Below, one piece after another: positions 8,850 through 51,349 of a stretch of 64,000 nt of DNA. This stretch comes from Magnetococcales bacterium DC0425bin3 (GTDB taxonomy: Bacteria; Pseudomonadota; Magnetococcia; Magnetococcales; DC0425bin3), in assembly GCA_002753665.1 (NCBI GenBank), contig PEAP01000007.1:529-64528 (forward strand), written 5' to 3'. Under the pieces are notes generated by a model that saw only the letters and a list, made by a program, of their open reading frames with translations, had not been told where the DNA came from and did not search any database. Within the stretch, counting starts at the first letter, position 1; the number at the start of each line of letters is the position of its first letter. Both the position numbers and the translations under genes were made by a program.

Positions 8850-8852
8850 ACC

Positions 8853-9839: not shown

Positions 9840-9878
9840 TGAAGGAGTCTGGTGGCAGGTTTGGAGGAGGAATAAGCC

Positions 9879-15888: not shown

Positions 15889-15914
15889 CCCGATGGTCGG
15901 AGGATGCAGTGGGC

Positions 15915-32357: not shown

Positions 32358-32454
32358 TGGGCTGGGGGAAGCCTTTCTCCACCCTCTACCGATGAAAGCC
32401 GCTTTCCGGTTTCCACGGTAACTTTGGCTGAAGGTCGGGAGGGTCCATCCATGG
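32352..32454. repeat. REP-like composite element (R3)
   Basis: GGGGGAAGCC..CTCCACCC + ACCGATGAAAGCCGC..CGG.TTCCACGG + TAACTTTGGCTGA junction + GGGAGGGTCCATCCATGG. Lies between panC and panD. Confidence 0.75.
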
Positions 32455-34738: not shown

Positions 34739-36138
34739 CGTTTCTGTTCCAGAAGGTCCGCCTCGTCCCGGGTGATTTTGCGTTCCGGGGAGTCCGGGGG
34801 GAAGCGGCGGGCAGCCTCCCGGTAATGCCAGAGGGCGGTTTCTTCCTCTCCCTGCAACCGATGATGGCGGGCCAGAGCCAGATGGCTGTGGCCCGGCCGC
34901 CCCATTTGTCCCTCCACCAATCCCAGCAGATAGAACGGCCTGGGATTCTGGGGAAATTCGCTGATCAGTCGGCGCAACAGGTGGCCGGCCTTGGCGTATT
35001 CTTTCTGTTCACTGAGAACGGAGGCCAACTGGTAGCGCAGGTCCTGGTGATCGGGAAGTTTTTCCAGGGCTGTTTCGAAATCCCGCCGCGCTTCGGTCAG
35101 GTTGTTGCGTTCCATCCGCACCAGTCCTCGTTCCCGCAGCAGATAGGGATCCTGGGGATGGTCTTCGAGCAATTCACTCAGCAAGGTTTCCGCTTCGGCC
35201 AATTGTCCCCCGTAGCGGCGGGCCAGGGCCAGACCGTAGCGGATGGGGAAGATCTCTTTCGGATCGGAGTTGCCTTGCAGTTGCTGCTCGAAGCGTTGGG
35301 CGGTGGCGGCGGGGTCGGACCCCAGCCCCGCTTCCAGCTTGGCCTGTACCCGGACCAGCCAGGCGCTTTCGGTATCGGCACGGCGCTGGGTGGGGGGATG
35401 CTGTTGAGCCAGATCCCGGGCTTCCGAAAGCCGTTGGGTGCTGATGGGATGGGAGAGGAGGTAGGGGGGCGGCAGGGTGGACAGGCGCTGTTCCCGGTGG
35501 ATCCGCTCCAGAAAATTGGCGATTCCCTGGGGATCGAGGCCGGTTTTGGAGAGGTATAGGACCGCCAGCCGGTCGGCCTGTCGTTCTTTTTGCCGCAGGT
35601 CGCTCAACAGGGCGGTTTGGGTGGAGGCGGCACCACCCAGGATGGCTCCCTGGGAGATGCTGCTGTCGCCGGTGGCAACGCCGGCGGCGATGCCCACCAC
35701 GGTGGCCAGCAGGGAAGTCAGGGAGAGATTCTTGGCCTTGTCCTTGATCTTGATGTGGTGACCGGCGGACAGGTGGGCCACTTCATGGGCGATGACACCT
35801 GCCAGTTCCTCCCGGCCCCGGGCGGCCTGGAGCAGGCCGCTGTTGAAGAAGATGTTGCCGTTCTCCAGGGCGAAGGCGTTGAGGGAGGTTTCCAGGATGA
35901 CATGAAAGTGGACCGATCCCGCGGGCAGACCGGCGGCCTGGACCAGGGGCTCGCCCAACTGGTCCAGAAGATCCGAGGTCTCCGGATCGTTGACCAGACG
36001 AATTTCTCCCTTGCCCAGGGCGGCCGTGGACCAGGACAGCAGGGCCGCCACCAGCAGAAGCAGCATCCGCAACCAGTCGGCGAGGAATGATGCCCTGAGG
36101 GGATTGCCGATCAGCCTCTGGCAGTGGTGTTTGCCCAT
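34735..36138 (-). CDS. M48 metalloprotease with C-terminal TPR domain (BepA/YfgC-like)
   Basis: HEVAHLSAGHH zinc motif, signal/TM segment LRMLLLLVAALLSWSTAALG, and C-terminal TPR repeats. Confidence 0.8.
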   Translation of the reverse strand: MGKHHCQRLIGNPLRASFLADWLRMLLLLVAALLSWSTAALGKGEIRLVNDPETSDLLDQLGEPLVQAAGLPAGSVHFHVILETSLNAFALENGNIFFNSGLLQAARGREELAGVIAHEVAHLSAGHHIKIKDKAKNLSLTSLLATVVGIAAGVATGDSSISQGAILGGAASTQTALLSDLRQKERQADRLAVLYLSKTGLDPQGIANFLERIHREQRLSTLPPPYLLSHPISTQRLSEARDLAQQHPPTQRRADTESAWLVRVQAKLEAGLGSDPAATAQRFEQQLQGNSDPKEIFPIRYGLALARRYGGQLAEAETLLSELLEDHPQDPYLLRERGLVRMERNNLTEARRDFETALEKLPDHQDLRYQLASVLSEQKEYAKAGHLLRRLISEFPQNPRPFYLLGLVEGQMGRPGHSHLALARHHRLQGEEETALWHYREAARRFPPDSPERKITRDEADLLEQKR

Positions 36139-36468
36139 GGCGTGGATTTCCGTTGCCCCCTGCGCGAAATAGGTCGAATTCTTGCATCCTGTCCTCTGGG
36201 GCCAGTGTTCCGGCGGCTTGGGCCGGTCCCTCAGTGTGGCCCATCGCCGGTGTTTTGGCGAGTCCTGTTGCCTTGTTATCCTGATTTTTCCCTGGCGAGG
36301 AGCCTGCCGCATTCAGCGGCAGGCTCCGTGGCGCAAGGATGCGCCGCCGGAATCGATTGTTGCAACCCATTGATTCCGTGAAGGAGGCGGAAACCTGTTT
36401 TCACCTCCCGATGAGCGGAATGGCCATGGAGGGCGATTCTGCGATAGGCTCCGAGAGGATGGGAAGCC

Positions 36469-36900
36469 ATGAACCGTTTTTCCCGCGTGGTGGGTCTGCG
36501 GCGGATCCGGGAGGAGGCCGAAGCCATGGCCTATGCCCGGGCTCTGGCCCGGTTGGAAGCTTTGCGGGGCAAGGTACGGGAACTGGATCGGGTTACCGCG
36601 CGAGGCCGGGAAGAGCGCCGCCAGGAGTTGGCGGAAGGCGGTCTGTCCATGCCGCCGGAGATGTTCGAGGGGTTCCTCAAGGGCCAAGCTTGGCGCCGGG
36701 AGCGGTTGTTGGAGGCCATCAATCGTTCCCTGGAGGAGGTTCGGAAGGCCAAGGAGGTTTGGCATGGGGTTCGGGTGCAATTGCAACAGATTGAGCGCCT
36801 TGAAGAAAAAGAGGGTGACCGGCTTCATGCCGAGGCTCGCCGTCAGGAGATGAAGGCCCTGGATGCGGTCAGCATGCTGCAATACATCAACAGAGCATGA
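36469..36900 (+). CDS. fliJ: flagellar export chaperone-like coiled-coil protein (FliJ-like)
   Basis: 143 aa, entirely charged heptad-rich helix. Right size and position (before the MotE-like gene and flagellins). Primary-sequence signal is weak. Confidence 0.55.
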   Translation: MNRFSRVVGLRRIREEAEAMAYARALARLEALRGKVRELDRVTARGREERRQELAEGGLSMPPEMFEGFLKGQAWRRERLLEAINRSLEEVRKAKEVWHGVRVQLQQIERLEEKEGDRLHAEARRQEMKALDAVSMLQYINRA

Positions 36901-36907
36901 GCCTTGA

Positions 36908-37450
36908 GTGGAGATGGCGGTTCGAATTCGGGAGGCTATCTTGGTGAACGGGCAACGGTGGATGGGCCGGCGGGCCCTGGGGTGGTGGTTCATATTCCTG
37001 GCCATCGGGTTGGCGGGACCAGCGGTGGCTGCTCCTCTGCAGGATCCCATCCAGTTGCTGGAGGCGCTGGAGAAACAGCGTGTGGCCCTGGATGAGCGCG
37101 CCAGGAGTCTGGATCTCAAAGAGGCGGAACTGAAACGTCTTGAGGAGCGGATTGATAAGCGGATCGCCCTTCTGGAGGAGTTGCGCCTGGCCATTGAGAC
37201 CGATCTGGCCAAGGAGAAGGAGATCAACGACGAAAACATTCGCCGCTTGGCCAAGATCTATTCCGGCATGAAACCGCGTGCCGCCGCCGAACGGATTCGC
37301 GGTCTGGATCGCAAGACCGCCATCAAGGTCCTCAAGAACATCAACGAAAAGGTCGCGGCCCAGATCCTCGGCAAGATGGAAGCCCGGGATGCCGCAGCCC
37401 TGGCCGATATTCTGGGCATGACCCTGTCCGACAAACGCAACAATCGGTAA
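36908..37450 (+). CDS. MotE/FlbB-family flagellar protein (MgtE_N-like domain)
   Basis: N-terminal TM helix, a coiled coil, then IYSGMKPRAAAERI..LD...A..VL..INEKVAAQILGKMEARDAAALADIL. Confidence 0.6.
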   Translation: MEMAVRIREAILVNGQRWMGRRALGWWFIFLAIGLAGPAVAAPLQDPIQLLEALEKQRVALDERARSLDLKEAELKRLEERIDKRIALLEELRLAIETDLAKEKEINDENIRRLAKIYSGMKPRAAAERIRGLDRKTAIKVLKNINEKVAAQILGKMEARDAAALADILGMTLSDKRNNR

Positions 37451-37603
37451 TCGAAGATCTTTTCCCCCTTCCTGATGGTTCGTTTGCTGCTTCTGGCGAA
37501 AACCGCTCAAGCCTGGCCTTGCCCGGGCCGATAATCCTTCCCAAGTGGTCGTCCGGAGACGCCATCCCTGGCGTTTCCGGACTGATTCGCTCTGGCTGGG
37601 CTT

Positions 37604-37672
37604 GCCGTGAAAGCCGGGAAGCGGCTTTTATCGGTGAAGGGCGGCCTCCCTCATCCATCGAAATTGGATGGA
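37604..37672. repeat. REP-like element, full unit (R4)
   Basis: CCGTGAAAGCCG-GGAA-GCGGCTTTTATCGG hairpin followed by TGAAGGGCGGCCTCCCTCATCCATC. Confidence 0.75.
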
Positions 37673-37684
37673 ACAGAAAAAAGG

Positions 37685-37711
37685 TTCAAGAACGGTTTTG
37701 AGGTTCCGATA
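37685..37711 (+). promoter_or_regulatory. sigma28 (FliA)-type promoter candidate upstream of flagellin 1
   Basis: TCAA (37685-37688), 15 nt, then TCCGATAA (37704-37711), against the enterobacterial consensus TAAA-N15-GCCGATAA. Lies ~185 nt upstream of the ATG. Confidence 0.5.
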
Positions 37712-37797
37712 AGATAACCAGGCAGGCGAATGGATCGCCGGTTCGGCGGCAGGCAGGAAAGCCGCTGAAGACCTGAAAGCAGAACAGTCGGCAGTCA

Positions 37798-37850
37798 AAA
37801 GGGCTGGGTTGGCCCTTTAAAACGAACAGCCCACCTCCACCCAGGGACGG
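37798..37850 (+). promoter_or_regulatory. flagellin-associated conserved box, copy A
   Basis: AAAGGGC-TGGGTTG-GCCCTTT hairpin, then TAAAACGAACAGCCCACCTCCACCCAGGGACGG. CAGGGA at 37842-37847. Confidence 0.7.
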
Positions 37851-37894
37851 AAGACGCAAAATTCCATGAATTTTGCAGGTCGGAGGTTATAAAA

Positions 37895-38713
37895 ATGGCA
37901 CTTTACGTCAACACGAACGTTGCTTCATTGAATGCCCAGCGCAATTTAATGAAGTCAACCACTGCCCTGGGCGTGTCCTTCGCCCGGCTTGCCTCGGGGC
38001 TCCGCATCAACTCCGCCCGTGATGACGCGGCGGGACTGTCCATCACCAACCGCATGACCGCCCAGGTGCGGGGTCTGAATCAGGCCATCCGCAATGCCAA
38101 CGACGGCATCTCCCTGGCCCAGGTAGCCGAAGGCGCCCTGGACGAAACCTCCAACGCTCTGCAACGGATCAGGGAGCTGGCGGTACAGGCGGCCAACTCT
38201 ACCTACAACAGCGCGGACCGCGAGGACCTGAACAAAGAGGTCATCCAGCTGTTGTCGGAAATTCAACGGATCTCCGAACACACTGAATTCAACAAGATGG
38301 TCTTGCTCCATGGCAGCTACACCGGCCAGCAGTTCCAGGTGGGTGCCTTTTCCGGACAGACCATCACCATCAGTGTGGTCGGTGCCACCCGGTCGGCTCT
38401 GGGTGTTTCCATGGTGACCCTTTCCACCACTGACGGGGCCAACTCGGCCATGCGTTTGGTGGACAATGCCCTGGACAGCATTGCCGACATTCGAGCCAAT
38501 CTGGGGGCGATTCAGAGCCGTTTCGAGGCGGTGATCGGCAACCTCTCCAATATTGTGGAGAACATGTCCGCCGCCCGGTCCCGGATCCAGGACACCGATA
38601 TCGCTGCGGAGACTGCGCAATTGACCCGCACCGCCATATTGCAACAGGCGGGGACGGCGATTCTGGCCCAGGCCAACCAGCAACCGCAACTGGCGCTGCA
38701 ACTTCTCGGCTGA
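37895..38713 (+). CDS. fliC: flagellin 1 (272 aa, short type without a large variable domain)
   Basis: [18 protein letters not shown]...[18 protein letters not shown]...QSRF...[16 protein letters not shown]. Closest paralog is flagellin 7. Confidence 0.95.
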
Positions 38714-39437
38714 TTCGGTCGAAGGATGGCAGGCGGTTCCTGCCCGGCCCGAAGGGCGAGATGCGTCTGTCGGAGCAACGCCAGAGAAGGTCCCCGACCT
38801 GACGTGGGATGGAAGGTGGACGGTAACATTTTGTTCGAGAGAATTGTTTTAGCCTTTTGTTTTGTGAAAGGGCTGGAGAGTGTGGGAAAAGGTTCCCTCG
38901 GAGGCGCCGGCGGACATCCAACGGCGGCCAACCCGTGAATGGGACGGGGATCGACCCTTCAACCGGAAGGACGGATGGCAATGGAAAAGAACCACGGCAA
39001 GAAGCCGCCATTCAGGTCGCAGGCTTCCCAGCCACCCTGGGAACCGCGCCGGTTCATCCGCAACGGCCGGATGGGAGTGGCCCTGGTTCCGGTGGCCGTC
39101 CATGACGCGGAGGAAACAGCCCGCATCATTCGGCGCTTGAAAATGGTGGCTCCGTAGGATGTTTCGGATTACCGGCCAGCGTGGTCGGTTGATCCGGGAC
39201 CGATTGGAAATGCTGGGGAGACGCCCTGAGAGGCGTTGTCGGACGAGTTTCGAAGCAGGCCTTGCCCGTGACGGCGGCAAGTCTGGCGGGGGACGGTTCG
39301 GCCACTGGCCGACGCCCAGGATGGGCGCGTTCCCGCTGCCGACAGGGGAAGGGCTGGTGCTGGACGCCAGATCCCGAAACAGGCGGGGGCGTTCAGGGCA
39401 GGACGGCTGAGCCGGCAATGCCGGAACAGCAGTGGGG

Positions 39438-39485
39438 GGGGCCGCCCCAATACAACAGAATGGCTCAAATATAGACAGGGAAGTG
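39438..39485 (+). promoter_or_regulatory. degenerate flagellin box, copy B
   Basis: GGGGCCGCCCC, then a 27-nt A-rich segment, then CAGGGAAG (39476-39483). Spacing matches the other boxes but the ACGAAC core is lost. Confidence 0.35.
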
Positions 39486-39559
39486 AAACATCCGGGCCTT
39501 TGATGTTGATCCCAATGGGGATCGCCGATGGCTCGAATGCGCGGTGTGGAGGGACAGCA

Positions 39560-40381
39560 ATGGCTCTTTCGGTATTGACCAACGTCGCTTCTCTGAATGC
39601 TCAGAGGAATCTGGTGCGCTCCACCAATTCCCTGAACAAGACGTTTCAGCGGCTTTCTTCCGGAATGCGGATCAACCGTGCTGCGGATGATGCCGCCGGC
39701 CTTTCCATCACCAACCGGATGACCGCCCAGGTGCGGGGTCTGAACCAGGCGGTGCGCAATGCCAACGACGGCATTTCTTTGGTGCAGGTGGCGGAAGGCG
39801 CCCTGGATGAAACGACCAATGCCTTGCAGCGGATTCGCGAGTTGGCGGTTCAGGCGTCGAACGGCACCTACACCAGCACCGACCGCACCTCCCTGAACCA
39901 GGAGGTTCAGCAGTTGATCTCGGAGATCAACCGGATTGCGTCCCAGACCCAGTTCAACAACTCGAACCTGCTGACGGGCAGCTTTACCGCCAAACGGTTC
40001 CAGGTGGGGGCCTATTCCGGACAGATCATCATGATCTCCATCGGCAGCGCGGCGGCGGCCCACCTGGGAGTGAGCGGCCTGAGCCTGGGCGGCAGCGGCA
40101 TGAAGGCCATGTCCGCCATCAGCAAGGTGGATTTGGCCCTGAATAGCATTTCGGACATACGGTCCAAGATGGGAGCCATCCAGAGCCGGTTCGAATCGGT
40201 GATCTCCAACTTGAGCAACATCTCGGAGAACACCAGCGCGGCCCGGTCACGGATTCTGGATGCCGACATCGCGGCGGAAACCTCCAACCTGACTTCGAGT
40301 GCCATTTTGCAGCAGGCGGGAACCTCCATCCTGGCCCAGGCCAATCAGCAGCCCCAGATGGTGTTGCAGCTGCTGGGATGA
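39560..40381 (+). CDS. fliC: flagellin 2 (273 aa)
   Basis: [42 protein letters not shown]...[22 protein letters not shown] sits 7 nt upstream of the ATG. Confidence 0.95.
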
Positions 40382-40957
40382 CGGCAGGTGGAAGGTGGGG
40401 AAGGCTTGGGTGAGTGAAAAAGGGATGCGGTCGGAAGCTGTTTTGCGACCATCCCGGGTGGCCCGCAGGGGTCGCCAGCAGGCGCAGTCTGCAGAGCGAT
40501 GTGGACAGTGTCGTGTGGGAGTGATCGGTTGGGAAAGATCGAAGAGGGGAGACATGATCGTGGATGATATGACGATGGGGTGGTGAGAAAGTCCAGGCAA
40601 GGCAACGGGACGGGCGCGATCTCATGAGGGAAGAGACCCGGACCGGAACGGAATTCCATCCAGTGAAAGGCCGCGTTCTCCAGGGAACGGCACAGGGACG
40701 GTGCAGACGGCTGCAGGGAGGGAGGATCATGGAAGATCCAATGTCTGGAAGGGAATTGCGGTCCGGAAAGGGCACGGCGCACGGCCGGAGGATGCGGCGC
40801 ATGGCAGTCATGGATCGTCTGGACCATCGCAGGGATAGCGGTGGAAGCAGGGGTTCTTCTGGCGCGAAGTGCGACAGAAGCCGCGGCGCAGGGAGGCGTC
40901 GTCGTCTTCATCTTCAGGCGGTGCAGGCGATTGAAGACGGGCAGGGAGGAGCCTTGT

Positions 40958-41025
40958 CACCGTGGAAGCCGGGAAGCGGCTTTCATCGGTGGAGGATGGT
41001 GGGATGCTTCCCCCATCCATCAGGG
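40958..41025. repeat. REP-like element, full unit (R5)
   Basis: CCGTGGAAGCCG-GGAA-GCGGCTTTCATCGG followed by TGGAGGATGGTGGGATGCTTCCCCCATCCATC. Lies inside the flagellin 2/3 spacer. Confidence 0.75.
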
Positions 41026-41549
41026 GTAGCGCCTCCCGACCGGCAGAATGGTCAGGGAAGGGCCATTTCGCGACAGCCTCTCAGGGAAGATGCGTCGGAT
41101 TGTGTCGGCAGGCGACAGCAGGAAGCTGCCGTCCCGGAATGTTCCAGGATCCGTCAGGGAGGGCGACAGGAAACGGGAGGGCCTCAAGGGAAGAGGCACG
41201 GGGATTTTTCGCGGTCTGGAACAGCCATGAAAGGCCTCCATGGTTCATGGACCGCAAAGGATGCGGTCCATGAACCGGGGTCTTCAATCAGTGGGCAAGA
41301 CCGGCAGCTTCGGAGTGTCCCGAGCCTGTCGGTTCAATGGTGAATAGCTGTCGAAAGGGTTCTTCGACAGTGCGAGGCGGACCAGGAAGGGCCGCCGGTA
41401 ATGAGCGAATCTGGCAACCGGTGCGGCGTATCGACCGCACCGGGGCCGTCCAGACACACCATGGAGGGAGTCATTGGACGGTCTTTCAGGGACGATGATC
41501 CGGAGCAGGAGAATGGGTAACGCATAAAGAGTCGAGGGGAATTGATGAC

Positions 41550-41600
41550 GGGCTGGGGTTGGCCCTTTAAAACGAACAACCCATCTGCACCCAGGGAAGG
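41550..41600 (+). promoter_or_regulatory. flagellin-associated conserved box, copy C
   Basis: GGGC-TGGGGTTG-GCCC hairpin, then TTTAAAACGAACAACCCATCTGCACCCAGGGAAGG. CAGGGA at 41592-41597. Confidence 0.7.
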
Positions 41601-41656
41601 GGCAAGGAGCAATTCTGGAATTCATAGAAGAATTCCGCATTCAGGAGGAATGAATC

Positions 41657-42478
41657 ATGGGTCTTTATCTGAACACCAATATCGCGTCCTTGACTGCTCA
41701 ACGGCACCTGGACCGGTCCAATGCCGCCCTGAACAAGACGTTCGAGCGTTTGTCTTCGGGCTTGCGCATCAACCGGGCCGCGGATGACGCCGCCGGACTC
41801 AATATCACCAGCCGGATGACCTCCGAAATCCGGGGTACCAATCAGGCGGTGCGCAATGCCAACGATGCCATCTCCCTGGTGCAGGTGGCGGAAGGGGCCC
41901 TCAACGAGACCACCAACGCCCTGCAGCGGATGCGGGAACTGGCGGTCCAGGCCTCCAACGGCACCCTGACCAGCACTGATCGCAGCGACCTGAACGATGA
42001 GTTCCAGCAACTGCTGTCGGAAATCGACCGCATCGCGGAAAACACCAAGTTCAACGGCCAGACGCTGCTGATGGGCAGCTTCACCGCCAAGCGGCTCCAG
42101 ATCGGGGCCAACAGCGGCCAGAACCTGGTGATCTCCCTGGGGGTGGCCAAGGCCACTTCCTTGGGTGTGACCGGCGTCAGCCTGGGTGGCAATGGCACCC
42201 TGGCGATGTCTGCCATCACCCAGCTCACCACCGCCATCAACAGCGTTTCCGACCTGCGGTCCAAGCTGGGTTCTCTGCAGAACCGGTTCGACGCGGTGGT
42301 GTCCAACCTGGAGAACATCTCGGAGAACACCTCCGCCGCCCGCTCCCGGATCCTGGATGCCGACATCGCGGCGGAAACCTCCAACCTGACCAAGAACGCC
42401 ATCCTTCAGCAGGCCGGAACGGCGATTTTGGCCCAGGCCAACCAACAACCCCAACTGATCCTGAGCCTGCTCGGCTGA
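41657..42478 (+). CDS. fliC: flagellin 3 (273 aa)
   Basis: [36 protein letters not shown]...[16 protein letters not shown]. Confidence 0.95.
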
Positions 42479-42489
42479 GGAAAGGGGCG

Positions 42490-42526
42490 GTCCCCGTCCG
42501 GGAGACAGAGTCTTCCGGACGGGGAC
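42490..42526 (+). terminator. long GC-rich hairpin just after the flagellin 3 stop
   Basis: GTCCCCGTCCGG (42490-42501) pairs perfectly with CCGGACGGGGAC (42515-42526). The inner GAGAC/GTCTT extends the stem. No U-tract. Confidence 0.5.
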
Positions 42527-42571
42527 GATCCCGGAGGACGAGTCTGGGGCGGTTTCCTCCATGGTGCGTTT

Positions 42572-42600
42572 CTGGTTCCGGGCCATCGGCCCGGAACCAG
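42572..42600 (+). terminator. second perfect 13-bp hairpin in the flagellin 3 downstream region
   Basis: CTGGTTCCGGGCC-ATC-GGCCCGGAACCAG. Confidence 0.45.
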
Positions 42601-42783
42601 CCTGGGAGAATGCATTATGATTCAAACAGCAACTGTTTTGAAAAAACGGATTTTTTTGTCATTCATCGGGGGAGGCGGGCCGGTCGCAAGGTCGGCAGGG
42701 ATTCCCCGGAATCCGGCGCCACCGGGATTGAAGGGACAGGAGGTGCAAAAGGGAAGAGACACGGCAACAAGGAGCAGTCACAA

Positions 42784-42835
42784 GGGTTAGGGTTGGCCCT
42801 GTAAAACGAACAACCCACCTCCAACCATGGATGGG
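42784..42835 (+). promoter_or_regulatory. flagellin-associated conserved box, copy D
   Basis: GGGTTAGGGTTGGCCCTGTAAAACGAACAACCCACCTCCAACCATGGATGG. CATGGA stands in place of CAGGGA at 42826-42831. Confidence 0.7.
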
Positions 42836-42859
42836 ACCATCTTTGCGAGGAGGAAGAAA

Positions 42860-43684
42860 ATGGCGCTATCGATCAACACCAACATGGGATCGTTGATCAT
42901 TCAACGACACTTGAAGACCAGCACCAAGAGCCTGAACACCACGTTCGAGCGGTTGGCGTCTGGACTTCGGGTCAACTCTTCCGCGGATGACGCAGCGGGG
43001 TTGTCCCTGGCTTCGACCATGACGTCACAGATTCGGGGTTCCAACCAGGCGTCCCGCAATGCCAATGATGCGATTTCTCTGCTTCAGGTGGCGGACGCGG
43101 CCCTGGGAGAAACCGCCAACGCCCTGCAGAGGATGCGGGAGCTGGCGGTCCAGGCCTCCAACGGTACGTTGACCAGTACCGACCGGGGTGACTTGGACGA
43201 GGAATTCCAGCAGTTGATGTCGGAAATTGACCGCATCGCGGAGAACACCACCTTCAACGGTCGTGTTCTGTTGATGGGCAGCTTCACCGCGAAACGGATT
43301 CAGGTGGGGGCGATGAGTGGTCAGAACCTCGTCTTCTCGTTGAAGACGGCCAAGACCATCTCCATCGGCCTTGCGGTCAATATCAGTCTGGGGGGCAACG
43401 GCGTCATTGCGATGTCCGCCATTTCCCAGATCGAGGACGCCATCGGCAGCATTTCTGATCTGCGGGCCAAGGTTGGGTCCCTGCAGAGCCGGTTCGAAGC
43501 GGTGGTGTCCACTCTCGCCAGTTCGGTCGGGAGCCTGGAAGCGGCACGGGCCCGCATTCTGGATGCGGATATCGCGCAGGAGACAGCGAATCTCACCCGC
43601 GCGAGCATCCTGCAGCAGGCCGGAACGGCAGTATTGGCCCAGGCCAATCAGCAGCCGCAACTGGTTCTCGCCTTGCTCGGTTGA
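42860..43684 (+). CDS. fliC: flagellin 4 (274 aa)
   Basis: [36 protein letters not shown]...[26 protein letters not shown] precedes the ATG. Confidence 0.95.
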   Translation: MALSINTNMGSLIIQRHLKTSTKSLNTTFERLASGLRVNSSADDAAGLSLASTMTSQIRGSNQASRNANDAISLLQVADAALGETANALQRMRELAVQASNGTLTSTDRGDLDEEFQQLMSEIDRIAENTTFNGRVLLMGSFTAKRIQVGAMSGQNLVFSLKTAKTISIGLAVNISLGGNGVIAMSAISQIEDAIGSISDLRAKVGSLQSRFEAVVSTLASSVGSLEAARARILDADIAQETANLTRASILQQAGTAVLAQANQQPQLVLALLG

Positions 43685-43743
43685 CCCCTTCGGGGGTGGC
43701 GAACAGGGGAGGGGACCGTCCCGGAAACGGGCGGTTCCCTCAC

Positions 43744-43807
43744 GGGACCGGGCCGGTCCCGGAAAACGAACGGCCCACCTCACCAGGGACGGTGAGCGGT
43801 GTTTTTT
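43744..43807 (+). terminator. orphan box-like element (copy E) ending in a canonical intrinsic terminator
   Basis: GGGACCG-GGC-CGGTCCC hairpin, GGAAAACGAACGGCCCAC, then CTCACC-AGGGAC-GGTGAG hairpin (43779-43796) and a T6 run (43802-43807). Confidence 0.6.
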
Positions 43808-44149
43808 CGATAGCGCCTGACGTCCATTCCGGTCCCCGCCTGCAGTGTGGGGGGGCCGGAATGGGTTCCTTTCCGAGACCGGAAGCTCCGGTGCCGGATG
43901 GGGGAAGCACTTGGACGATGTCTGCCGGCCAGGGACAGGCCGGAGAGCCTGCCGTGAGAGTCGCAGTGGCGGTTCCCATGGCACGAAGGGGGAGAGGTCT
44001 CCCCCCCGGGAGAATGGTCGTGAAGGACAAGGATCGAAGGGGCACGACAAGGGTTTGCACGACAGGGGTTTGGAAAAGGGTTGCCTCTGACCAGGGATGG
44101 ATGGAACGGGGGATGGCGCCCCCGGGTTTGGCGGGTGGGAGGTGATTCA

Positions 44150-44968
44150 ATGGCTTTTTCCGTTGAGACCCATGTGGCGGCCCTGTTCGCCCAGCGGCAG
44201 ATGGGACGATCATCCTCTTCCCTGGGGCATTCGTTCCGTCGCCTGGCGACGGGATTGCGGATGGAGGATTTTCCGGAAGATGGGGAGGAGGTCTCCATCG
44301 AGACCGGCTCCGAGGTGCGGACCCGGGTGCTGAATCAGGCCATTCGCAGCGCCAACGACGGGATTTCCCTGGCCCAGGTGGCCGAGAGGGCGCTGGAGCG
44401 GACCATGGGAGTCCTGGGGCGGATCCAACAATTGTTGAAACCGGATCCGGACAGCCCGCCTGTGGAACAGGAAGAGATGGCGCGGGAAATCAGTCGCCTG
44501 GTCCTGGAGGTGGACCGGATCGCCCAGGGGACCGTGTTCGACGGCATGAGCCTATTGACCGGAAGCGTCCAGGGGCAGGGGTATCAGGTAGGTGTCGGCA
44601 GCAGTCAGACTTTGACCATCACCATTGAACCGGCCGGAGCCGAAGCCATAGGCCTGGGCAGGCTGGAGGAAGGACTGGAGAAGGAAGGATCCGAGGGGGT
44701 TCCGGAAGTGGTGGTGAACGAGGCCATGGCCAGTGTTTCGGGCATCCGGGCCACCCTGGAGGAGGTGCTGGACCGGTTCGAGGCGGCGGCGGGCAATTTG
44801 AACACCCTGTCCGAGAACATGGAGGCGTCCCGCAGCCGGATCATCGATGTGGATGTGGCCGAGGAAACATCGGCCATGGCCCGGGATGCCATTTTGCTGC
44901 AGGCGGATCGGGCGGTGCTGGCCCAGGCCAATCACCATCCGCAACTGGTTTTGACCCTGCTGGATTGA
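44150..44968 (+). CDS. divergent flagellin-like protein 5 (272 aa)
   Basis: Flagellin N- and C-terminal helices are recognisable ([19 protein letters not shown]..., SRSRIIDVDVAEETSAMARDAILLQ...QANHHPQLVLTLLD). The RINSAxDDAAG segment is replaced by RMEDFPEDGEEVSIETGSE. Confidence 0.8.
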   Translation: MAFSVETHVAALFAQRQMGRSSSSLGHSFRRLATGLRMEDFPEDGEEVSIETGSEVRTRVLNQAIRSANDGISLAQVAERALERTMGVLGRIQQLLKPDPDSPPVEQEEMAREISRLVLEVDRIAQGTVFDGMSLLTGSVQGQGYQVGVGSSQTLTITIEPAGAEAIGLGRLEEGLEKEGSEGVPEVVVNEAMASVSGIRATLEEVLDRFEAAAGNLNTLSENMEASRSRIIDVDVAEETSAMARDAILLQADRAVLAQANHHPQLVLTLLD

Positions 44969-45228
44969 TTTGGTTATTGCGGCGGCTTGGGAAGCGACCG
45001 CCAGGCCTGTCCCGCGAGGGGCAGGGAAGCCGGTACCGGCATTGGGGCCGGTACAACATGGGCCTGAATCCGCGCAGAAAGCGGAAAAATGGCCGGTGTC
45101 GGATGCCGAGGATGGAGCGTCGTTGAACGGTGGCGCGTTTCCGGTGAATGGAAGGACGCTCCATCCGGTATCGGACAGAAGGTACAAGGGAGGCGGACAG
45201 GAACGAAGGACAGGCAAACGGAACTGAC

Positions 45229-45280
45229 GGGTTAGGGTTGGCCCTGTAAAACGAACAACTCACCTCCAACCAGGGAAGGA
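45229..45280 (+). promoter_or_regulatory. flagellin-associated conserved box, copy F
   Basis: GGGTTAGGGTTGGCCCTGTAAAACGAACAACTCACCTCCAACCAGGGAAGG. CAGGGA at 45271-45276. Confidence 0.7.
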
Positions 45281-45309
45281 TACAGACCAATGTGTCGGGA
45301 GGAAATACC

Positions 45310-46131
45310 ATGGCTTTGTCGATCAATACCAACATCGCTGCGTTGACGATTCAAAACCGGCTGCGGACCAGCACTGACAGCTTGAACCGGACCTTCGAGA
45401 GACTGTCGTCCGGTCTGCGGGTGAATTCCGCCAAGGACGATGCCGCGGGACTGGGTATCGCCACCAGTCTCAGCGCCCAGATTCGGGGCAACAATCAGGC
45501 GGCGCGCAACGCCAACGATGCCATTTCGTTGGTGCAGGTGGCGGAGGGGGCACTCGGGGAAACGGCCAATGCCCTGCAACGGATGCGGGAGCTGGCGGTT
45601 CAAGCTTCCAACGGCACCCTGACCAGCACCGACCGCAGCGACTTGAACGACGAGTTCCAGCAGCTCTTGTCGGAAATCGACCGCATCGCGGAAAACACCA
45701 AGTTCAATGGCCAGACGCTGCTGATGGGCAGCTTCACCGCCAAGCGGCTCCAGATCGGGGCCAACAGCGGTCAGAACCTGGTGATTTCCCTGGGGGTGGC
45801 CAAGGGCACCTCCCTGGGGGTGAACGGCGTCAGCCTGGGGGGCAATGGCACCATGGCGATGTCCGCCATCACCCAGCTCACCACCGCAATCAACAGCGTC
45901 TCGGATTTGCGCTCCAAGATGGGCGCGCTCCAGAACCGCTTCGAGGCGGTGGTGACCAACCTGTCCACTGCGGCCGAGAACCTGGAAGCGGCCCGGGCCC
46001 GGATCATGGATGCCGATATCGCCCAGGAGACATCCAGCCTGACCCGGAACGCCATCCTGCAGCAGGCGGGAACCGCGGTGCTGGCCCAGGCCAATCAGCA
46101 ACCGCAGCTGGTGTTGGCTTTGCTGGGATGA
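45310..46131 (+). CDS. fliC: flagellin 6 (273 aa)
   Basis: [36 protein letters not shown]...[16 protein letters not shown]. Confidence 0.95.
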
Positions 46132-46162
46132 TCACGCCACGGTCATTCCGGTGACAGGGGAT

Positions 46163-46184
46163 CGCCCCGGGAGGCCCCGGGGCG
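46163..46184 (+). terminator. 9-bp GC hairpin after flagellin 6
   Basis: CGCCCCGGG-AGGC-CCCGGGGCG, 32 nt after the stop codon. No U-tract. Confidence 0.4.
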
Positions 46185-46206
46185 GTTGTCCCAAGCCACT
46201 TCTGGT

Positions 46207-46260
46207 CGGGTTCGGGCCGGACCCGTCGCAACGAACGGCCCAGTGTCGCCAGGGATTGGC
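46207..46260 (+). promoter_or_regulatory. orphan degenerate flagellin box (copy H), no flagellin downstream
   Basis: CGGGTTCGGGCCGGACCCG hairpin, then TCGCAACGAACGGCCCAGTGTCGCCAGGGATTGG. CAGGGA at 46250-46255. Confidence 0.4.
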
Positions 46261-46307
46261 GTCGAACCGCCCCCGCTTGTCGGGGGCGTTTCCTTTTCTG
46301 GAAGTTC

Positions 46308-46445
46308 GACGGAAGGGGGAGGACTCCCTCTGCCATCTATCGATGGAAGCCCCTTTCCGGCTTCCACGGTAACTTTGCTGGATGGGGGAGGCCCTCCCTC
46401 CACCCTTCACCGATGAAAGCCGTTTCCCGGCCTCCAGGGTAGATC
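46308..46445. repeat. REP-like composite, two tandem units in reverse orientation (R6)
   Basis: Two copies of GG.GGGGGAGG.C.CCCTC...C + CGATG(G/A)AAGCC..TTCC(C)GGC.TCCA.GG, joined by the same TAACTTTGCTGGA junction seen in R3. Confidence 0.75.
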
Positions 46446-46468
46446 ACGCCGTTTCGGCCGGGCAGGAA

Positions 46469-47317
46469 TTACCCGGTCGAATTTTCCTCCGGCAGATGCA
46501 ACAAATCCTTGGCGGGGCTTTTCAGTCCCGCGGCGCGAATCTTTTCCAACATCCGGGGATGGAGGCCGGGTCCCGCCGCCACCACGTCCCCGGATTCAAG
46601 GAATCCGTTACCCCCGTTGAAATCGCTGACGAAGCCTCCCGCCTCTCGGACCAGCAGAATCCCGGCGGCGATATCCCAGACGCACAGATTCATTTCCCAG
46701 AAACCGTCGAATCGCCCGGCGGCGGTGTAGGCCAGGTCCAACGCCGCGCTGCCTGCCCGGCGCACGCCCGGTCCCGAAGACAGCAGCAGGGGGCCGAAGC
46801 TTTTCAGATAAGCCTGACGCAAACCCCGTTCCCGAACCGGAAAGCCGGTGGCCAGGAAGGCATCGGCCAGGTGGGGAATGTTGGTGACCCGGATGCGGTG
46901 GCCGTTGAAAAAGGCGCCGGCCCCTTTCTCTGCCGTGAACAGTTCATCCTGGACGGGATTGTAGACCAGCCCGGCCAGTACCTGGTCGTCTTCCGCCAGG
47001 GCGATGGAAATGGCGAAGTGGGGCAACCCTCGCAGGAAGTTGGTGGTGCCGTCGATGGGGTCGATGATCCAGTGATGTCCCGTGGGCCGTCGGGCGGGGT
47101 CGGCGCTCTCTTCCGCCAGGACTCCGTATTGGGGATAGCCCTTGCGCAGGTGATAGAGGATTTCCCGTTCCACCCGGGTGTCGGCCTCGGAGACGAAGTC
47201 GTGGGCCGCCTTTTCCCGTACCTGGAGCTGTTCCCGGCGGTCGAAGTAACGCAAGGCCAAGGCTCCGGCCTTGCGGGCGGCCCGGACGGCAAGATTCATG
47301 ACGGGGGAATGAAGCAT
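46469..47317 (-). CDS. suhB: inositol monophosphatase family protein (SuhB-like)
   Basis: MLHSPVMNLAVRAARKAG.., EESA, WIIDPIDGTTNF, and WDIAAG motifs. Confidence 0.88.
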   Translation of the reverse strand: MLHSPVMNLAVRAARKAGALALRYFDRREQLQVREKAAHDFVSEADTRVEREILYHLRKGYPQYGVLAEESADPARRPTGHHWIIDPIDGTTNFLRGLPHFAISIALAEDDQVLAGLVYNPVQDELFTAEKGAGAFFNGHRIRVTNIPHLADAFLATGFPVRERGLRQAYLKSFGPLLLSSGPGVRRAGSAALDLAYTAAGRFDGFWEMNLCVWDIAAGILLVREAGGFVSDFNGGNGFLESGDVVAAGPGLHPRMLEKIRAAGLKSPAKDLLHLPEENSTG

Positions 47318-47505
47318 GGGGTGGCTGCGACCGGGGCAATGGAGAAAGGGGGGGAGCTGACGACAAAAAACTAACATGGGCTGGGGGGGAACGTCACCGG
47401 CACCGGGAATAATTGTGTCCATGGCCGAACCAGGTGGGGGAAAAGTTTGCCCATCCGGGAACAGTAATTATGTTCAACTGTTTGATATAACACAAATAAA
47501 TGTTA

Positions 47506-47521
47506 TGGCACAAATAATGCT
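47506..47521 (+). promoter_or_regulatory. sigma54 (-24/-12) promoter candidate for flgK-flgL-fliW
   Basis: TGGCAC-AAATA-ATGCT matches TGGCAC-N5-TTGCW with correct GG-N10-GC spacing. It sits in the only AT-rich island of the region, ~145 nt upstream of the flgK ATG. Confidence 0.6.
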
Positions 47522-47665
47522 GACCATGAAACAGGCCGTAACTTCGCGGGTCTCTTCCGAAAAATCGGTGGGAGGCAAAACGGACTTACGGATGGCATGA
47601 GAAGTGCATATCGGCTCTGCGGCAGGAAGCATCATCGGGCCCATCGCGTTCAGAAAGACAGGCAA

Positions 47666-49435
47666 ATGTCGATTACCAACCTTCTGTACAGTTCCAAGCT
47701 GGGGCTGTTTGCCAATCAGTCGGCGCTGAACGCGGTGTCCCACAACATCGCCAACGTCAACACCCCCGGCTATTCCCGGCAGACGGTCTCCCTGGAGGCC
47801 AATCCCGGCGCGGCAGCCATCCCGGGTCGCAGCGGCGAAGGGGTGCTGGTGGCGGATCTGAAGCGCCAGGTGGATGCGCTGGTGGACAAGCGGTTGCGGC
47901 TGGGGATGGAGGAATCCGGACGGTTGGAATCACGGGATCGTTTCCTGGGCCTGATGGAGGATGTGTTCAACGATCTGGACGGCGAGGGCTTTTCCTCGCG
48001 GATGGAGTCCTTTTTTCAGTCGGTGGATGCGGCGGCGGACAATCCGATCAACCCGGTGGCCCGGGCCCAGGTGGTGGCCAGCGCCGAGGACCTTTCCCTG
48101 TTCGCGACCAAGATGCAGACCTCCCTGGAGGAACTGGCGCTGCCGGTGGACCAGGAAGTGACCAACATGCTCGACCAGATCAACAGCACCCTGGGCAACC
48201 TGGAGGAGATCAACGGCCAGATCGTCGCGGCGCTCGCCGCCGGCGGCCAGCCGCTGGATCTCCAGGATCAGCGGCAGCAGTTGGTCCAGAACCTGAGCCG
48301 GATGCTGGACGTGCAGGTTCTCGATGGCGGCAACGGCGGCATCAGTGTTCTCTCCGGGTCCGGACAACTGCTGCTGGATCAGTCCTTTCGGGCGGTTTTT
48401 TCCCGCAGCGAGGGCACTACCACGGCTGCCGGTTTTCAGGGCATCGCCATCAATGGCGAGGCGTTCGACTACACCGACCTGGTCCATGGTGGTTCTCTGA
48501 AGGGGCTGCTGGAAATCCGGGATCAGACGATCCACGGGGAGAACGGTTATCTCACCCGTCTGGAATCCTTGGTGGACGAGATCCGCTTCCAGACCAACCT
48601 GGCCCATGTCACGGCGGTGCCCCAGAACATGCTCCAAGAGCTGACCGGGGTGATGAATCTGGGCAACGATTTGACCACGGTCATGGGATCCCTGGTGACC
48701 GATCCGACCAGCAGTGACTACCTGGATTCTCCCACGGACCTGGGACGGACCGAGATCCAGGCCGGCACCATCACCTTTGCCCGGGGCAGCGATTCGGACA
48801 ATTTGACCACCGTGACCGTGACGGTGGATCCCGCCACTCAGAGCCTCACCGACCTGGTGACCGCCATTGGGACGGCCACCGGCATGAGCGCCGAGATCAC
48901 TGCCAACAATCGGTTGCGGGTCTATACCACCGACGGCACGGAAGTGTTCGGAGTGGTTTCCGATACCAGCAACGTACTGGCGGCCCTGGGGGTGGGCGCG
49001 CTGTTTGGCGGCAACGGCGCCCGGGACATGACGGTCAACCAGGACCTGCTGGCCGATACCAACCGGCTGGGCATCTCCCGGGTGGACGTCTCCAGTGGAA
49101 CGCCGGTGTTTGACGATGCCTCCAATGCCGGCATCCTGGCCCTGGGGGCATTGCGTTCCACCAAGTTCACCATCGGCGGCAACATGCTGACCTTCAGCTC
49201 CCACTACGCCGACATCGCCGGCGACCTGGGGGTGGCCCGGGCGCAGAACGAGGAATCCATGGCGGCCCAGGAATCGTCCGCGGCCTTTCTTCAGGATGTC
49301 CGGGATTCCATCTCGGGGGTTTCCCTGGAGGAGGAGCTGACCGACCTGGTGAAGTTTCAACGGGCCTTCCAGGCCTCCAGCCGGATGGTTTCGGTGGCCG
49401 ACGAGCTGCTGGAAACGATCATCGGCATGATCTAG
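47666..49435 (+). CDS. flgK: flagellar hook-associated protein 1
   Basis: MSITNLLYSSKLGLFANQSALNAVSHNIANVNTPGYSRQ N-terminus. C-terminus EELTDLVKFQRAFQASSRMVSVADELLETII. Confidence 0.92.
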   Translation: MSITNLLYSSKLGLFANQSALNAVSHNIANVNTPGYSRQTVSLEANPGAAAIPGRSGEGVLVADLKRQVDALVDKRLRLGMEESGRLESRDRFLGLMEDVFNDLDGEGFSSRMESFFQSVDAAADNPINPVARAQVVASAEDLSLFATKMQTSLEELALPVDQEVTNMLDQINSTLGNLEEINGQIVAALAAGGQPLDLQDQRQQLVQNLSRMLDVQVLDGGNGGISVLSGSGQLLLDQSFRAVFSRSEGTTTAAGFQGIAINGEAFDYTDLVHGGSLKGLLEIRDQTIHGENGYLTRLESLVDEIRFQTNLAHVTAVPQNMLQELTGVMNLGNDLTTVMGSLVTDPTSSDYLDSPTDLGRTEIQAGTITFARGSDSDNLTTVTVTVDPATQSLTDLVTAIGTATGMSAEITANNRLRVYTTDGTEVFGVVSDTSNVLAALGVGALFGGNGARDMTVNQDLLADTNRLGISRVDVSSGTPVFDDASNAGILALGALRSTKFTIGGNMLTFSSHYADIAGDLGVARAQNEESMAAQESSAAFLQDVRDSISGVSLEEELTDLVKFQRAFQASSRMVSVADELLETIIGMI

Positions 49436-50694: not shown

Positions 50695-51189
50695 ATGGAA
50701 CTTCAGGGAACGCGCTTTGGAACGTTGGAATTCGATGGCGAGGAGATCATCACCTTGAACGAGGGGTTGCTGGGGTTTCCGCTTTCCAAGCGGTTTCTCC
50801 TGTTTCCCTACGGGGATGATTCCTCCTTCTTTTGGCTGCAATCGGTGGACGAGCCGGAGATCGCCTTCATCGTGGTCAACCCGTTCGATTTCTTCTCGGA
50901 CCTGGAATTCGCCGTGCAGGACACGGATGCCGACGCCATCGGCCTGGTTCGGGGGGAGGATGTGGAGATCTTCAGTCTGGTGACCATCCCCGAGGGGCGT
51001 CCCGAGGAGATGCGCACCAACCTGGCCGGCCCGGTGGTGGTCAACGTGGCCAACCGCCAGGGCAAGCAGATCCTGATCAAGGACTACTCGCCCCGCCAGG
51101 CGCTGATCCCCGAGGAAATTCGGCAGAATTTTCGGCAGCAGCTGGGCAGCCAGCAGCCGACCAGGAAGCGGGCGGTGGGTGGCGGTTGA
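50695..51189 (+). CDS. fliW: flagellar assembly factor FliW
   Basis: MELQGTRFGTLEFDGEEIITLNEGLLGFP..KRFLLFP.......FFWLQSVDEPEIAFIVVNPF..F.DLEF is the typical FliW fold sequence. Carries a ~20-aa basic C-terminal tail. Confidence 0.88.
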   Translation: MELQGTRFGTLEFDGEEIITLNEGLLGFPLSKRFLLFPYGDDSSFFWLQSVDEPEIAFIVVNPFDFFSDLEFAVQDTDADAIGLVRGEDVEIFSLVTIPEGRPEEMRTNLAGPVVVNVANRQGKQILIKDYSPRQALIPEEIRQNFRQQLGSQQPTRKRAVGGG

Positions 51190-51245: not shown

Positions 51246-51300
51246 GAAGGGCTGGGGTTGGCCCTTTCAAGCGAGCAACCCACGCCGATCAGGGATGACA
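51246..51300 (+). promoter_or_regulatory. flagellin-associated conserved box, copy G (contains a sigma28-like -10)
   Basis: AAGGGC-TGGGGTTG-GCCCTT hairpin, then TCAAGCGAGCAACCCACGCCGATCAGGGATGA. GCCGATCA at 51284-51291. CAGGGAUG (51290-51297) matches the CsrA SELEX core CARGGAUG. Confidence 0.7.
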
Positions 51301-51349
51301 ACGGACCGATAGCACGACAGTGCCGTCATGATAGAAAGAGGATGAAATC

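Follow-up and report, generated by a model that had tools for sequence, protein, structure and literature searches.

Ten sense-strand copies of a CsrA-type motif in a non-coding spacer of a Magnetococcales flagellin array, and their possible role as CsrA sites

The analysis concerns a stretch of 64,000 nucleotides (nt) from the Magnetococcales bacterium DC0425bin3, here called the window, and in particular the non-coding gap of 1168 nt (40382-41549, hereafter the spacer) between the second and third genes of a six-gene flagellin array. On the plus strand of the spacer, which is the sense strand of the flagellins, the hexamer CAGGGA occurs ten times, while on the minus strand it does not occur at all, and the same word is presented by a hairpin in a conserved leader RNA that precedes every flagellin gene of the array. 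In the form CAGGGA(N)G the word fits the core, CARGGA(U)G, of the consensus RUACARGGAUGU, with GGA in a hairpin loop, that has been obtained for CsrA by SELEX (PMC7652899). We tentatively read the spacer as a transcribed cluster of predicted CsrA sites inside the mRNA of the flagellin array, which would serve either as a sponge for CsrA or as a loader of CsrA in cis, and give this reading a probability of about 0.4.

The motif excess is measured against 2000 dinucleotide shuffles of the spacer, the base composition of which is 453 G, 263 A, 262 C and 190 T. The ten copies of CAGGGA start at 40681, 40693, 40714, 40830, 40889, 40942, 41053, 41082, 41155 and 41487, and are to be compared with an expected number of 1.2 (z score 8.3); not one of the 2000 shuffles has as many. 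When the word is shortened to AGGGA the count is 16 against 4.2 (z 6.1), and for A.GGA, where the dot stands for any base, it is 22 against 10.5 (z 4.0). When the word is extended to the octamer CA.GGA.G there are ten copies on the plus strand and one on the minus strand, with 1.1 expected (z 8.5), and for CA(N)GGA the corresponding numbers are 19, 2 and 6.2. The bare triplet GGA is found 61 times on the plus strand and 18 times on the minus strand (46.4 ± 4.6 in the shuffles, z 3.2), and the Shine-Dalgarno-like GGAG is not enriched in the spacer (16 against 17.8). An earlier reading of the letters alone, here called the sequence-only reading, had estimated about 60 and about 19 GGA for the two strands, which the recount bears out, and the ten positions that it gave for CAGGGA, as a number far above what composition predicts, are all exact.

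The excess is also local. When windows of 1168 nt are slid along either strand of the 64 kb, the maximum for CAGGGA (11, next 7), for AGGGA (16, next 8) and for A.GGA (23, next 15) falls on the spacer, and for plain GGA the spacer is only tied with 43701-44868 (62 each). It holds 10 of the 60 plus-strand copies of CA.GGA.G in the 64 kb, the highest count among same-sized stretches of either strand, and it is the only intergenic region of the window where CA(N)GGA(N)G has been multiplied, with 0-2 copies in each of the others. All ten hexamers have the same orientation, their spacing is irregular (12 to 332 nt), seven of them are distributed over 800 nt in unrelated sequence contexts, and the closing G after CAGGGA(N) is retained in eight. 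The runner-up in CAGGGA count, with seven copies in 1168 nt, is the minus strand of about 15580-16750, which lies within a long plus-strand open reading frame (ORF) region (15480-18554).

That the spacer is non-coding, as the sequence-only reading had it, is seen in several ways. The GC content is level across the three codon phases (G 0.36, 0.38 and 0.39 by codon position), the spacer has no Pfam match and no gene in the NCBI annotation, the plus-strand ORF finds only itself, on the same contig, in a HMMER search of 1.84 billion protein representatives, and the minus-strand ORF has no match in a word-indexed protein search. The alternative that the spacer encodes an unannotated protein in its plus-strand ORF of 204 to 256 codons (40573-41343), or is what a frame shift has left of an orphan gene, of the kind of the ORF of 561 amino acids in locus L010 of a relative, draws on a gene caller's prediction of a 204-residue protein here (P0121), on a longest stop-free run of 256 codons, which is on the long side (167 ± 47 in shuffles, 29 of 500 as long), and on the equivalent long spacer in L010, where one frame is open throughout (a length reached by 0 of 500 shuffles). 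With a base composition that is flat over codon positions, no protein match beyond the self-match, no likeness to the L010 ORF except in the leader box, and CAGGGA copies in all three frames (6, 3 and 1), this alternative is hardly credible. Searches for a flagellin pseudogene between flagellins 2 and 3, with tblastn and blastn (E ≤ 10) and with a flagellin hidden Markov model (HMM) against a shuffle null, led to its rejection: the HMM gives no match, and the best tblastn alignment has E 0.011 at 23% identity.

The significance of the word CAGGGA comes from the flagellin leaders. A leader element of about 56 nt stands upstream of every flagellin in the array and is conserved in six Magnetococcales assemblies, the flagellins of which are 44-83% identical to the query flagellin; beyond the window it is found in loci L002, L003, L006, L007, L010 and L166. 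A covariance model, R1, built from 20 leaders of the 6 assemblies, recovers all boxes, which are listed here together with the leader that follows the spacer:

37798-37853, 39431-39487, 41548-41603, 42782-42837, 43742-43795, 44064-44103, 45227-45282, 46206-46261 and 51247-51301: the leader boxes of the window
41548-41603, plus strand: leader box of flagellin 3, with helix P1 GGGUUG/CAACCC and a hairpin CCC-AGGGAA-GGG that presents the invariant CANGGANG (R1 69.8 bits, E 3e-20)
41604-41656, plus strand: rest of the flagellin 3 leader, with hairpin 2 GGAATTC-ATAGAA-GAATTCC and a hairpin CATTC-AGGAG-GAATG with the Shine-Dalgarno GGA in its loop

The order of parts in a leader is helix P1, a hexaloop hairpin, a second hairpin of variable sequence, the Shine-Dalgarno sequence GGAGG and the start codon. 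P1 (GGGUUG/CAACCC) has compensatory changes in four of its six pairs, with 100% of the cells of the alignment paired, and its covariation score of 0.416 compares with 0.237 ± 0.023 for shuffles, none of 500 of which reach it, and with at most 0.175 when the partners are slid. In the hexaloop hairpin the string C-A-N-G-G-A-N-G(G) has invariant C, A, GGA and G and two variable N over the 20 leaders, and flanking CC/GG pairs close the ANGGAN hexaloop in 100% of them. The Shine-Dalgarno GGAGG follows 30-60 nt 3' of the hexaloop, and hairpin 2, although its sequence varies between paralogues, still forms in most. In the flagellin 3 leader both GGAs have a probability of being unpaired of 0.87-0.88. 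The leader thus combines an ANGGA stem-loop with a second GGA at the Shine-Dalgarno site, which is the canonical recognition layout of CsrA/RsmE, here as predicted sites. The CAGGGA of the spacer is therefore identical with the word under selection in each flagellin leader of this lineage. The sequence-only reading let the spacer run up to the box of the next flagellin, and the flagellin 3 box does start at 41548.

The element has no Rfam match in a scan of 36000-48000 and looks like an undescribed CsrA-responsive motif. With its covarying helix, its ANGGAN hexaloop and its Shine-Dalgarno hairpin it is a concrete and testable regulatory element, independently of any sponge. A role of the box as promoter was rejected, as inspection by eye and by scan gives no fit to the sigma-28, sigma-54 or sigma-70 consensus, and an anti-Shine-Dalgarno role of its CCUCC was dropped, as this stretch is unconserved in L002, L003 and flagellin 7. 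Two boxes, 43742-43795 and 46206-46261, are orphans in the sense that no flagellin stands behind them, which suggests a past loss of flagellin genes from the array. Next to the former comes a terminator-like hairpin (43779-43796), the loop of which contains CAGGGA, and after the latter comes the strong terminator at 46268-46288.

The spacer itself consists of the following parts:

40382-40955, plus strand: 5' half, purine-rich and weakly structured, with six CAGGGA (40681, 40693, 40714, 40830, 40889, 40942) and CATGGAAG at 40728
40724-40739, 40824-40844 and 40883-40902, plus strand: GGA-loop hairpins of the 5' half, GGATC-ATGGAA-GATCC, CCATCGC-AGGGATA-GCGGTGG and GCGGCGC-AGGGAG-GCGTCGT, respectively
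40956-41025, plus strand: copy of a dispersed intergenic repeat with two hairpins, A GTGGAAGCCG-GGAAG-CGGCTTTCAT and B GGATGGTGGGA-TGCT-TCCCCCATCC (fold z -4.9)
41026-41236, plus strand: second purine-rich segment, with three CAGGGA (41053, 41082, 41155)
41046-41068, 41116-41128 and 41181-41197, plus strand: GGA-loop hairpins of the second segment, GAATGGTC-AGGGAAG-GGCCATTT, CAGC-AGGAA-GCTG and GCCTC-AAGGGAA-GAGGC, respectively
41237-41445, both strands folding: cluster of four or five near-perfect palindromic hairpins
41446-41547, plus strand: last segment, with CATGGAGG (41460) and CAGGGACG (41487)

The short hairpins that the sequence-only reading had listed are all present where it placed them. 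By a simple stem-loop rule, 19 of the 61 GGAs stand in hairpin loops, to be compared with 7.8 ± 2.7 in shuffled sequences (1 of 1000 as high). In the second part of the spacer, 40956-41549, the fold z is -6.5 on the plus strand and -8.0 on the minus strand. The palindrome at about 41241-41277 has a 16-bp stem and the loop AAGGA (hairpin 41236-41282, fold z -7.1), and others follow at about 41299-41335, 41347-41371, 41376-41396 (hexaloop AGGAAG) and 41418-41443. Because both strands fold, the palindromes of 41237-41445 are inverted repeats at the DNA level. A 29-nt match joins 41173-41201 to 42736-42764, just upstream of the flagellin 4 box, and, taken with the palindromes, it points to an insertion of some 345 nt in front of the flagellin 3 box. 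Beyond this 29-nt patch, homology among the spacers of the array is confined to the dispersed repeat and the leader box. The dispersed repeat, CCGTGGAAGCCGGGAAGCGGCTTTCATCGG, often with a second hairpin, has, besides the copy at 40960-40989 (plus), at least four others in the window, at 32389-32418 (minus), 37605-37634 (plus), 46410-46439 (minus) and about 46308-46373 (minus). It is a stem-loop with a GGAAG loop followed by a short run of T, its copies mostly lie just downstream of genes, and it may be an element of the repetitive extragenic palindromic type or a weak terminator; the hairpin at 40960-40989 is trailed only by TTTCAT.

For the spacer to act as RNA it must be transcribed, and here the organization of the array is of interest:

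minus strand: M48 peptidase gene, at the start of the local gene map
36469-36900: fliJ-like gene
36908-37450: motE/MgtE_N-like gene
37506-37535 and 37684-37713, plus strand: two sigma-28-like promoters, TCAAG-N14/15-GCCGATAA or TCCGATAA, of the form TCAAG-N14/15-(G/T)CCGATAA, with -10 elements at about 37527-37534 and about 37705-37712
37895-38713, plus strand: flagellin 1
39560-40381, plus strand: flagellin 2, upstream neighbour of the spacer, with Pfam Flagellin_N and Flagellin_C, annotated as a gene by NCBI (L083 1895-2716)
41657-42478, plus strand: flagellin 3, downstream neighbour of the spacer
42860-43684, plus strand: flagellin 4
44150-44968, plus strand: flagellin 5, divergent
45310-46131, plus strand: flagellin 6
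46268-46288, plus strand: the sole strong intrinsic-terminator-like site of the array, eight G-C pairs and then TTTCCTTTTC, after flagellin 6 and an orphan box
46469-47317, minus strand: inositol-monophosphatase gene
47597-49435: flgK, followed by flgL, fliW, a seventh flagellin, flaG, fliD and two fliS

An ORF of 330 codons on the plus strand, 46382-47374, is spurious; the real gene is the inositol monophosphatase on the minus strand, as in the syntenic loci L001, L002, L165 and L166. FlgK of the window is identical to a protein of a Magnetococcales metagenome-assembled genome, and the window corresponds to contig JADFWZ010000014.1 of assembly GCA_015233965.1 in reverse orientation; for the flagellin 3 protein an exact look-up finds no record.

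In a scan for CCGATA, the two sigma-28-like sites upstream of flagellin 1 are the only ones in the non-coding plus strand of the array, and the six genes may form one transcription unit that ends at 46268-46288. The composition of the spacers points the same way. Rho requires RNA that is untranslated, rich in C and poor in G. The fraction of 78-nt windows with more C than G is only 0-10% in the five internal spacers, while five of the six flagellin coding sequences have 30-79% of them and the region upstream of flagellin 1 has 45-55%, and the scarcity of such windows in the internal spacers is the pattern expected of untranslated read-through RNA that evades Rho. In L003, furthermore, the gaps between flagellins are just 104-120 nt and mostly filled by the leader box and the Shine-Dalgarno region, which leaves little room for separate promoters. 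From consensus motifs and composition, then, the array would appear to be largely co-transcribed, with the spacers as part of the RNA.

The window also encodes the protein antagonist of CsrA:

50695-51189, plus strand: fliW (Pfam FliW, E 2.6e-34), in the order flgK-flgL-fliW-flagellin 7, 9.1 kb downstream of the spacer

The distance of 9 kb given by the sequence-only reading is correct, and the order flgK-flgL-fliW-flagellin is found likewise in L001, L002, L164, L165 and L166. The cultured relative M. marinus is reported to encode CsrA as well as FliW (PMC4682653). Cultured magnetococci have 14-15 flagellin paralogues in tandem arrays and a flgKL-fliW-fliC cluster (PMC7175107), and the presence of FliW is anti-correlated with the BarA-UvrY system that drives the CsrB/Rsm small RNAs (PMC4682653, PMC7652899).

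Consider, with these elements in place, how the array might work. The spacer would be untranslated RNA, either as 3' untranslated region (UTR) of flagellin 2 or as 5' leader of flagellin 3, and its transcription would probably start at the two sigma-28-like promoters that precede flagellin 1 and read through the genes between. Each flagellin mRNA of this lineage carries, in its hexaloop hairpin and its Shine-Dalgarno GGA, the two-site layout by which a CsrA dimer can block translation, as in the partner switch of FliW, CsrA and flagellin. In the spacer some 10-14 sense copies of the CsrA-type string C-A-N-G-G-A-N-G have accumulated, about half of them in short hairpin loops, and these extra sites could bind several further CsrA dimers. 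Two outcomes can be envisaged. In one, CsrA would be titrated off the flagellin leaders whenever the array is transcribed, and the spacer would be a sponge embedded in mRNA that works alongside FliW. In the other, CsrA would be loaded in cis next to flagellin 3.

A number of results weigh against this reading, and several of them come from folding. The 5' half, with six of the ten CAGGGA, folds no better than its shuffles (z -1.2 on the plus strand). The mean probability that a GGA of the spacer is unpaired is 0.36, to be compared with 0.30 ± 0.03 in shuffles, and when E. coli CsrB is taken through the same folding and counting pipeline as positive control the corresponding values are 0.66 and 0.35. 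The probability exceeds 0.5 for 18 of the 61 spacer GGAs (30%) and for 15 of the 22 in CsrB (68%), and it does so for only four of the ten CAGGGA; GGAs in loops are in true excess, but to a far lesser degree than in CsrB. The CsrB sequence has four CAGGGA and a GGA density similar to that of the spacer (6.0 and 5.2 per 100 nt, respectively). The number of sites per nucleotide is several-fold lower in the spacer than in CsrB or RsmZ. In an Rfam scan of 36000-48000 at E ≤ 10 no family has a match inside 40382-41549, the covariance models of CsrB, CsrC and RsmX/Y/Z/W/V (clan CL00106) included, and consensus scans find no sigma-70-like promoter and no terminator on the plus strand of the spacer that would delimit a separate small RNA. 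Because the test by covariance models failed and the presentation in loops is weak, the spacer does not belong to the CsrB/Rsm families; it is close to CsrB in density and base composition, and much less so in architecture.

Other objections concern composition, origin and relatives. The purine skew and the GGA density, which the sequence-only reading had counted correctly, are not peculiar to this spacer but common to all five internal flagellin spacers (GC skew +0.18 to +0.26; GGA per 100 nt 4.3-5.5 on the plus and 1.5-2.6 on the minus strand), and evasion of Rho in untranslated read-through RNA is another plausible cause of both. Three CAGGGA lie inside 40 nt (40681-40720), possibly as the result of one local duplication, and the dispersed repeat and the palindrome cluster look like accumulated junk. 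There is no alignable copy of the spacer in genome or metagenome collections, and a scan of genome contigs with FlgK finds no close relative: the nearest flagellin relatives are Magnetococcales loci with at most 63% identity in genome contigs and 60% in metagenomes, and FlgK of the next relative is 57% identical. A CAGGGA cluster occurs in no available relative, where the maximum is 3-4 per 1168 nt.

When leader boxes are removed and CA(N)GGA is scored in the gaps of relatives, the longest gap of L002 (2820-3772) has seven copies on the sense strand and none on the other (z 4.8), and the longest gap of L010 (8273-9901) has 15 and 7 (z 6.8). There is no such enrichment in L006, in L002 1235-1894, in the long gaps of L166, which are C-skewed, or in the window's own spacer between flagellins 1 and 2, and the enriched gap of L010 is a doubtful comparator, holding as it does a stop-free ORF of 561 codons. 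The recurrence of sense CA(N)GGA enrichment across relatives is therefore weak and partial. The long gaps of L009 and L011 were dropped as comparators, since they contain fliW. As to the ORF of L010, the 1.7-kb gap 8332-10017 is one open frame, annotated as hypothetical protein HQL53_02920, without homologue or Pfam domain; it runs through the leader box of the next flagellin and has a strong excess of CAGGATG/GGATGG in each of the three frames. Finally, a search by regular expression and tblastn found no csrA in the 64-kb window or in any Magnetococcales locus among 163.

The main rival is that the spacer is non-functional debris, left behind as the array gains and loses genes and made up of old UTR, local duplications, a dispersed repeat and inserted palindromes, with CAGGGA as leftovers or small duplications of leader fragments and with the richness in G and A as the general untranslated composition of the array. 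Gene loss is suggested by the two orphan boxes, the divergent flagellin 5 has a composition like that of the spacers, and there is a marginal flagellin-like remnant at 39056-39151; the spacer itself has the repeat copy and four palindromes, the 29-nt match hints at an inserted piece of about 345 nt, the skew and the GGA density are common to all spacers, no CAGGGA cluster is seen in relatives, and three of the CAGGGA crowd within 40 nt. Debris of this kind is nevertheless somewhat unlikely, when the following is taken into account. With its filters off, R1 finds no leader-box remnants, however degenerate, in the spacer (best E 0.57), and the flagellin HMM is blank there. Decay should erase the hexamer, yet it stands at eight times expectation, with ten copies against none between the strands and with the closing G in eight of the ten, and the seven copies in unrelated contexts over 800 nt are not explained by decay.

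Another possibility is that the spacer acts only in cis, as a long flagellin 3 leader or flagellin 2 3' UTR that tunes the neighbouring gene without titration in trans, by extra CsrA loading and tighter repression, by CsrA-dependent Rho termination, of the kind known for E. coli pgaA, or by mRNA stability. The motif and strand evidence speaks for it to the same extent as for a sponge, the spacer continues into the leader box of flagellin 3 without an intervening terminator, and the spacing of the sites, 12-116 nt, is compatible with the generally known range for bridging by a CsrA dimer. However, one box and a spacer of about 350 nt suffice for the other flagellins of the array, and flagellins 2 and 3 are unremarkable (73% and 100% identical to the query flagellin, with ordinary leaders). 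Sequence alone cannot tell action in cis from a sponge, and we regard an exclusively cis-acting spacer as quite improbable. DNA sites for a transcription factor or nucleoid protein that recognizes CAGGGA/TCCCTG at flagellin promoters would account for a hexamer that is clustered and also present in every leader box, near possible promoters. This is very improbable: ten of ten copies have one orientation at irregular spacing, the leader motif stands in a hairpin with a covarying stem, which points to selection on RNA, and no promoter consensus is recognized in the box.

The proposal of the sequence-only reading, a CsrA sponge, is partly supported, with the probability stated at the outset: the excess of CsrA-type motifs, the non-coding nature of the spacer and the presence of FliW speak for it, and the lack of an Rfam match, the weak loops and the lack of a CAGGGA cluster in relatives weaken it. 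A more specific version, in which a between-gene sponge of magnetotactic cocci is co-transcribed with the flagellin array, has ten or more copies of the leader's CANGGANG motif and acts together with FliW, perhaps with independent origins in the window, L002 and L010, is unlikely.

In the current picture CsrA is kept in check in one of two ways, in Gammaproteobacteria through sponge small RNAs and in most flagellated bacteria outside that class through the protein FliW, and the sole RNA antagonist known to us in an organism with FliW is the short flaA leader of C. jejuni. This leader of the flaA mRNA is a published CsrA target and sponge with two ANGGA stem-loops, one of them over the ribosome-binding site (Dugar et al. 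2016, PMC4894983), so that the sequence-only reading went too far in holding that a sponge embedded in flagellin sequences had never been described. The likeness is considerable. Both RNAs are, or for the spacer are proposed to be, untranslated parts of flagellin mRNA with ANGGA stem-loops, one at a ribosome-binding site; both organisms encode FliW, with no CsrB/Rsm-type small RNA detected; and in both the titration of CsrA is proposed to free other flagellar mRNAs. The direct counterpart of the flaA leader is the Magnetococcales leader box with its hexaloop and Shine-Dalgarno hairpins. In contrast to flaA, with two sites in 45 nt, the spacer, known from sequence alone, has 10-14 extra sites in about 1.2 kb, outside any leader and between tandem paralogues.

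With CsrB/CsrC and RsmX/Y/Z/W/V the spacer shares a purine-rich sequence, a high GGA density, repeated CAGG(G)A(N)G and some sites in short hairpin loops. It differs from them in being 3 to 10 times longer with several-fold fewer sites per nucleotide, in having neither a covariance-model match nor a visible promoter or terminator of its own, and in a host that has FliW. In B. subtilis the hag leader has two CsrA sites, one in an upstream hairpin and one at the Shine-Dalgarno sequence, which are part of the Hag-FliW-CsrA partner switch. The two-site flagellin leader and the place of fliW in a late flagellar cluster adjoining flgK and flgL are the same here, whereas B. subtilis has one flagellin gene, no decoy sites, and csrA next to fliW, where a flagellin follows in the present case. 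The 5' UTR of Salmonella fim is a CsrA titrator embedded in mRNA, where the UTR of an abundant message competes for CsrA and thereby cross-regulates other targets; unlike the spacer, it is one leader that has few sites, and its host is a gammaproteobacterium with CsrB and CsrC besides.

If the spacer does titrate CsrA, what would be new is its scale (about 1.2 kb with ten or more sites), its position between flagellin paralogues and its apparent origin by multiplication of the motif of the target. No multi-site CsrA decoy would have been known before it in a system of the FliW type outside the Gammaproteobacteria, and it would mean that FliW systems can also evolve RNA sponges of high capacity, through multiplication of the target motif within the target operon. 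It would also hint at how cells with many flagellins and flagellar bundles balance one pool of CsrA against many flagellin mRNAs. To our knowledge, most members of the lineage have no genetic system.

Some observations on the surroundings may be added. Flagellin 5 is only 38% identical to flagellin 3 and has a spacer-like composition (GC skew +0.17, 6% of windows with more C than G), and it may be decaying or evolving fast. In the spacer between flagellins 1 and 2, positions 39056-39151 weakly resemble residues 65-96, the best conserved segment of flagellin, and do so consistently over the paralogues, with tblastn E values of 0.002-0.13 and an HMM score that is matched by 2 of 100 shuffles; a flagellin gene may have died here and left this trace. 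The models of clan CL00106 have sub-threshold RsmW matches elsewhere, at 36322-36451 (23 bits) and 37551-37582 (21 bits), where the gathering score is 52. The former overlaps 36313-36468 (156 nt), upstream of the fliJ-like gene, and this region has three GGA hairpins, e.g., GUGGCGCA-AGGA-UGCGCCGC, and may be another CsrA-regulated leader.

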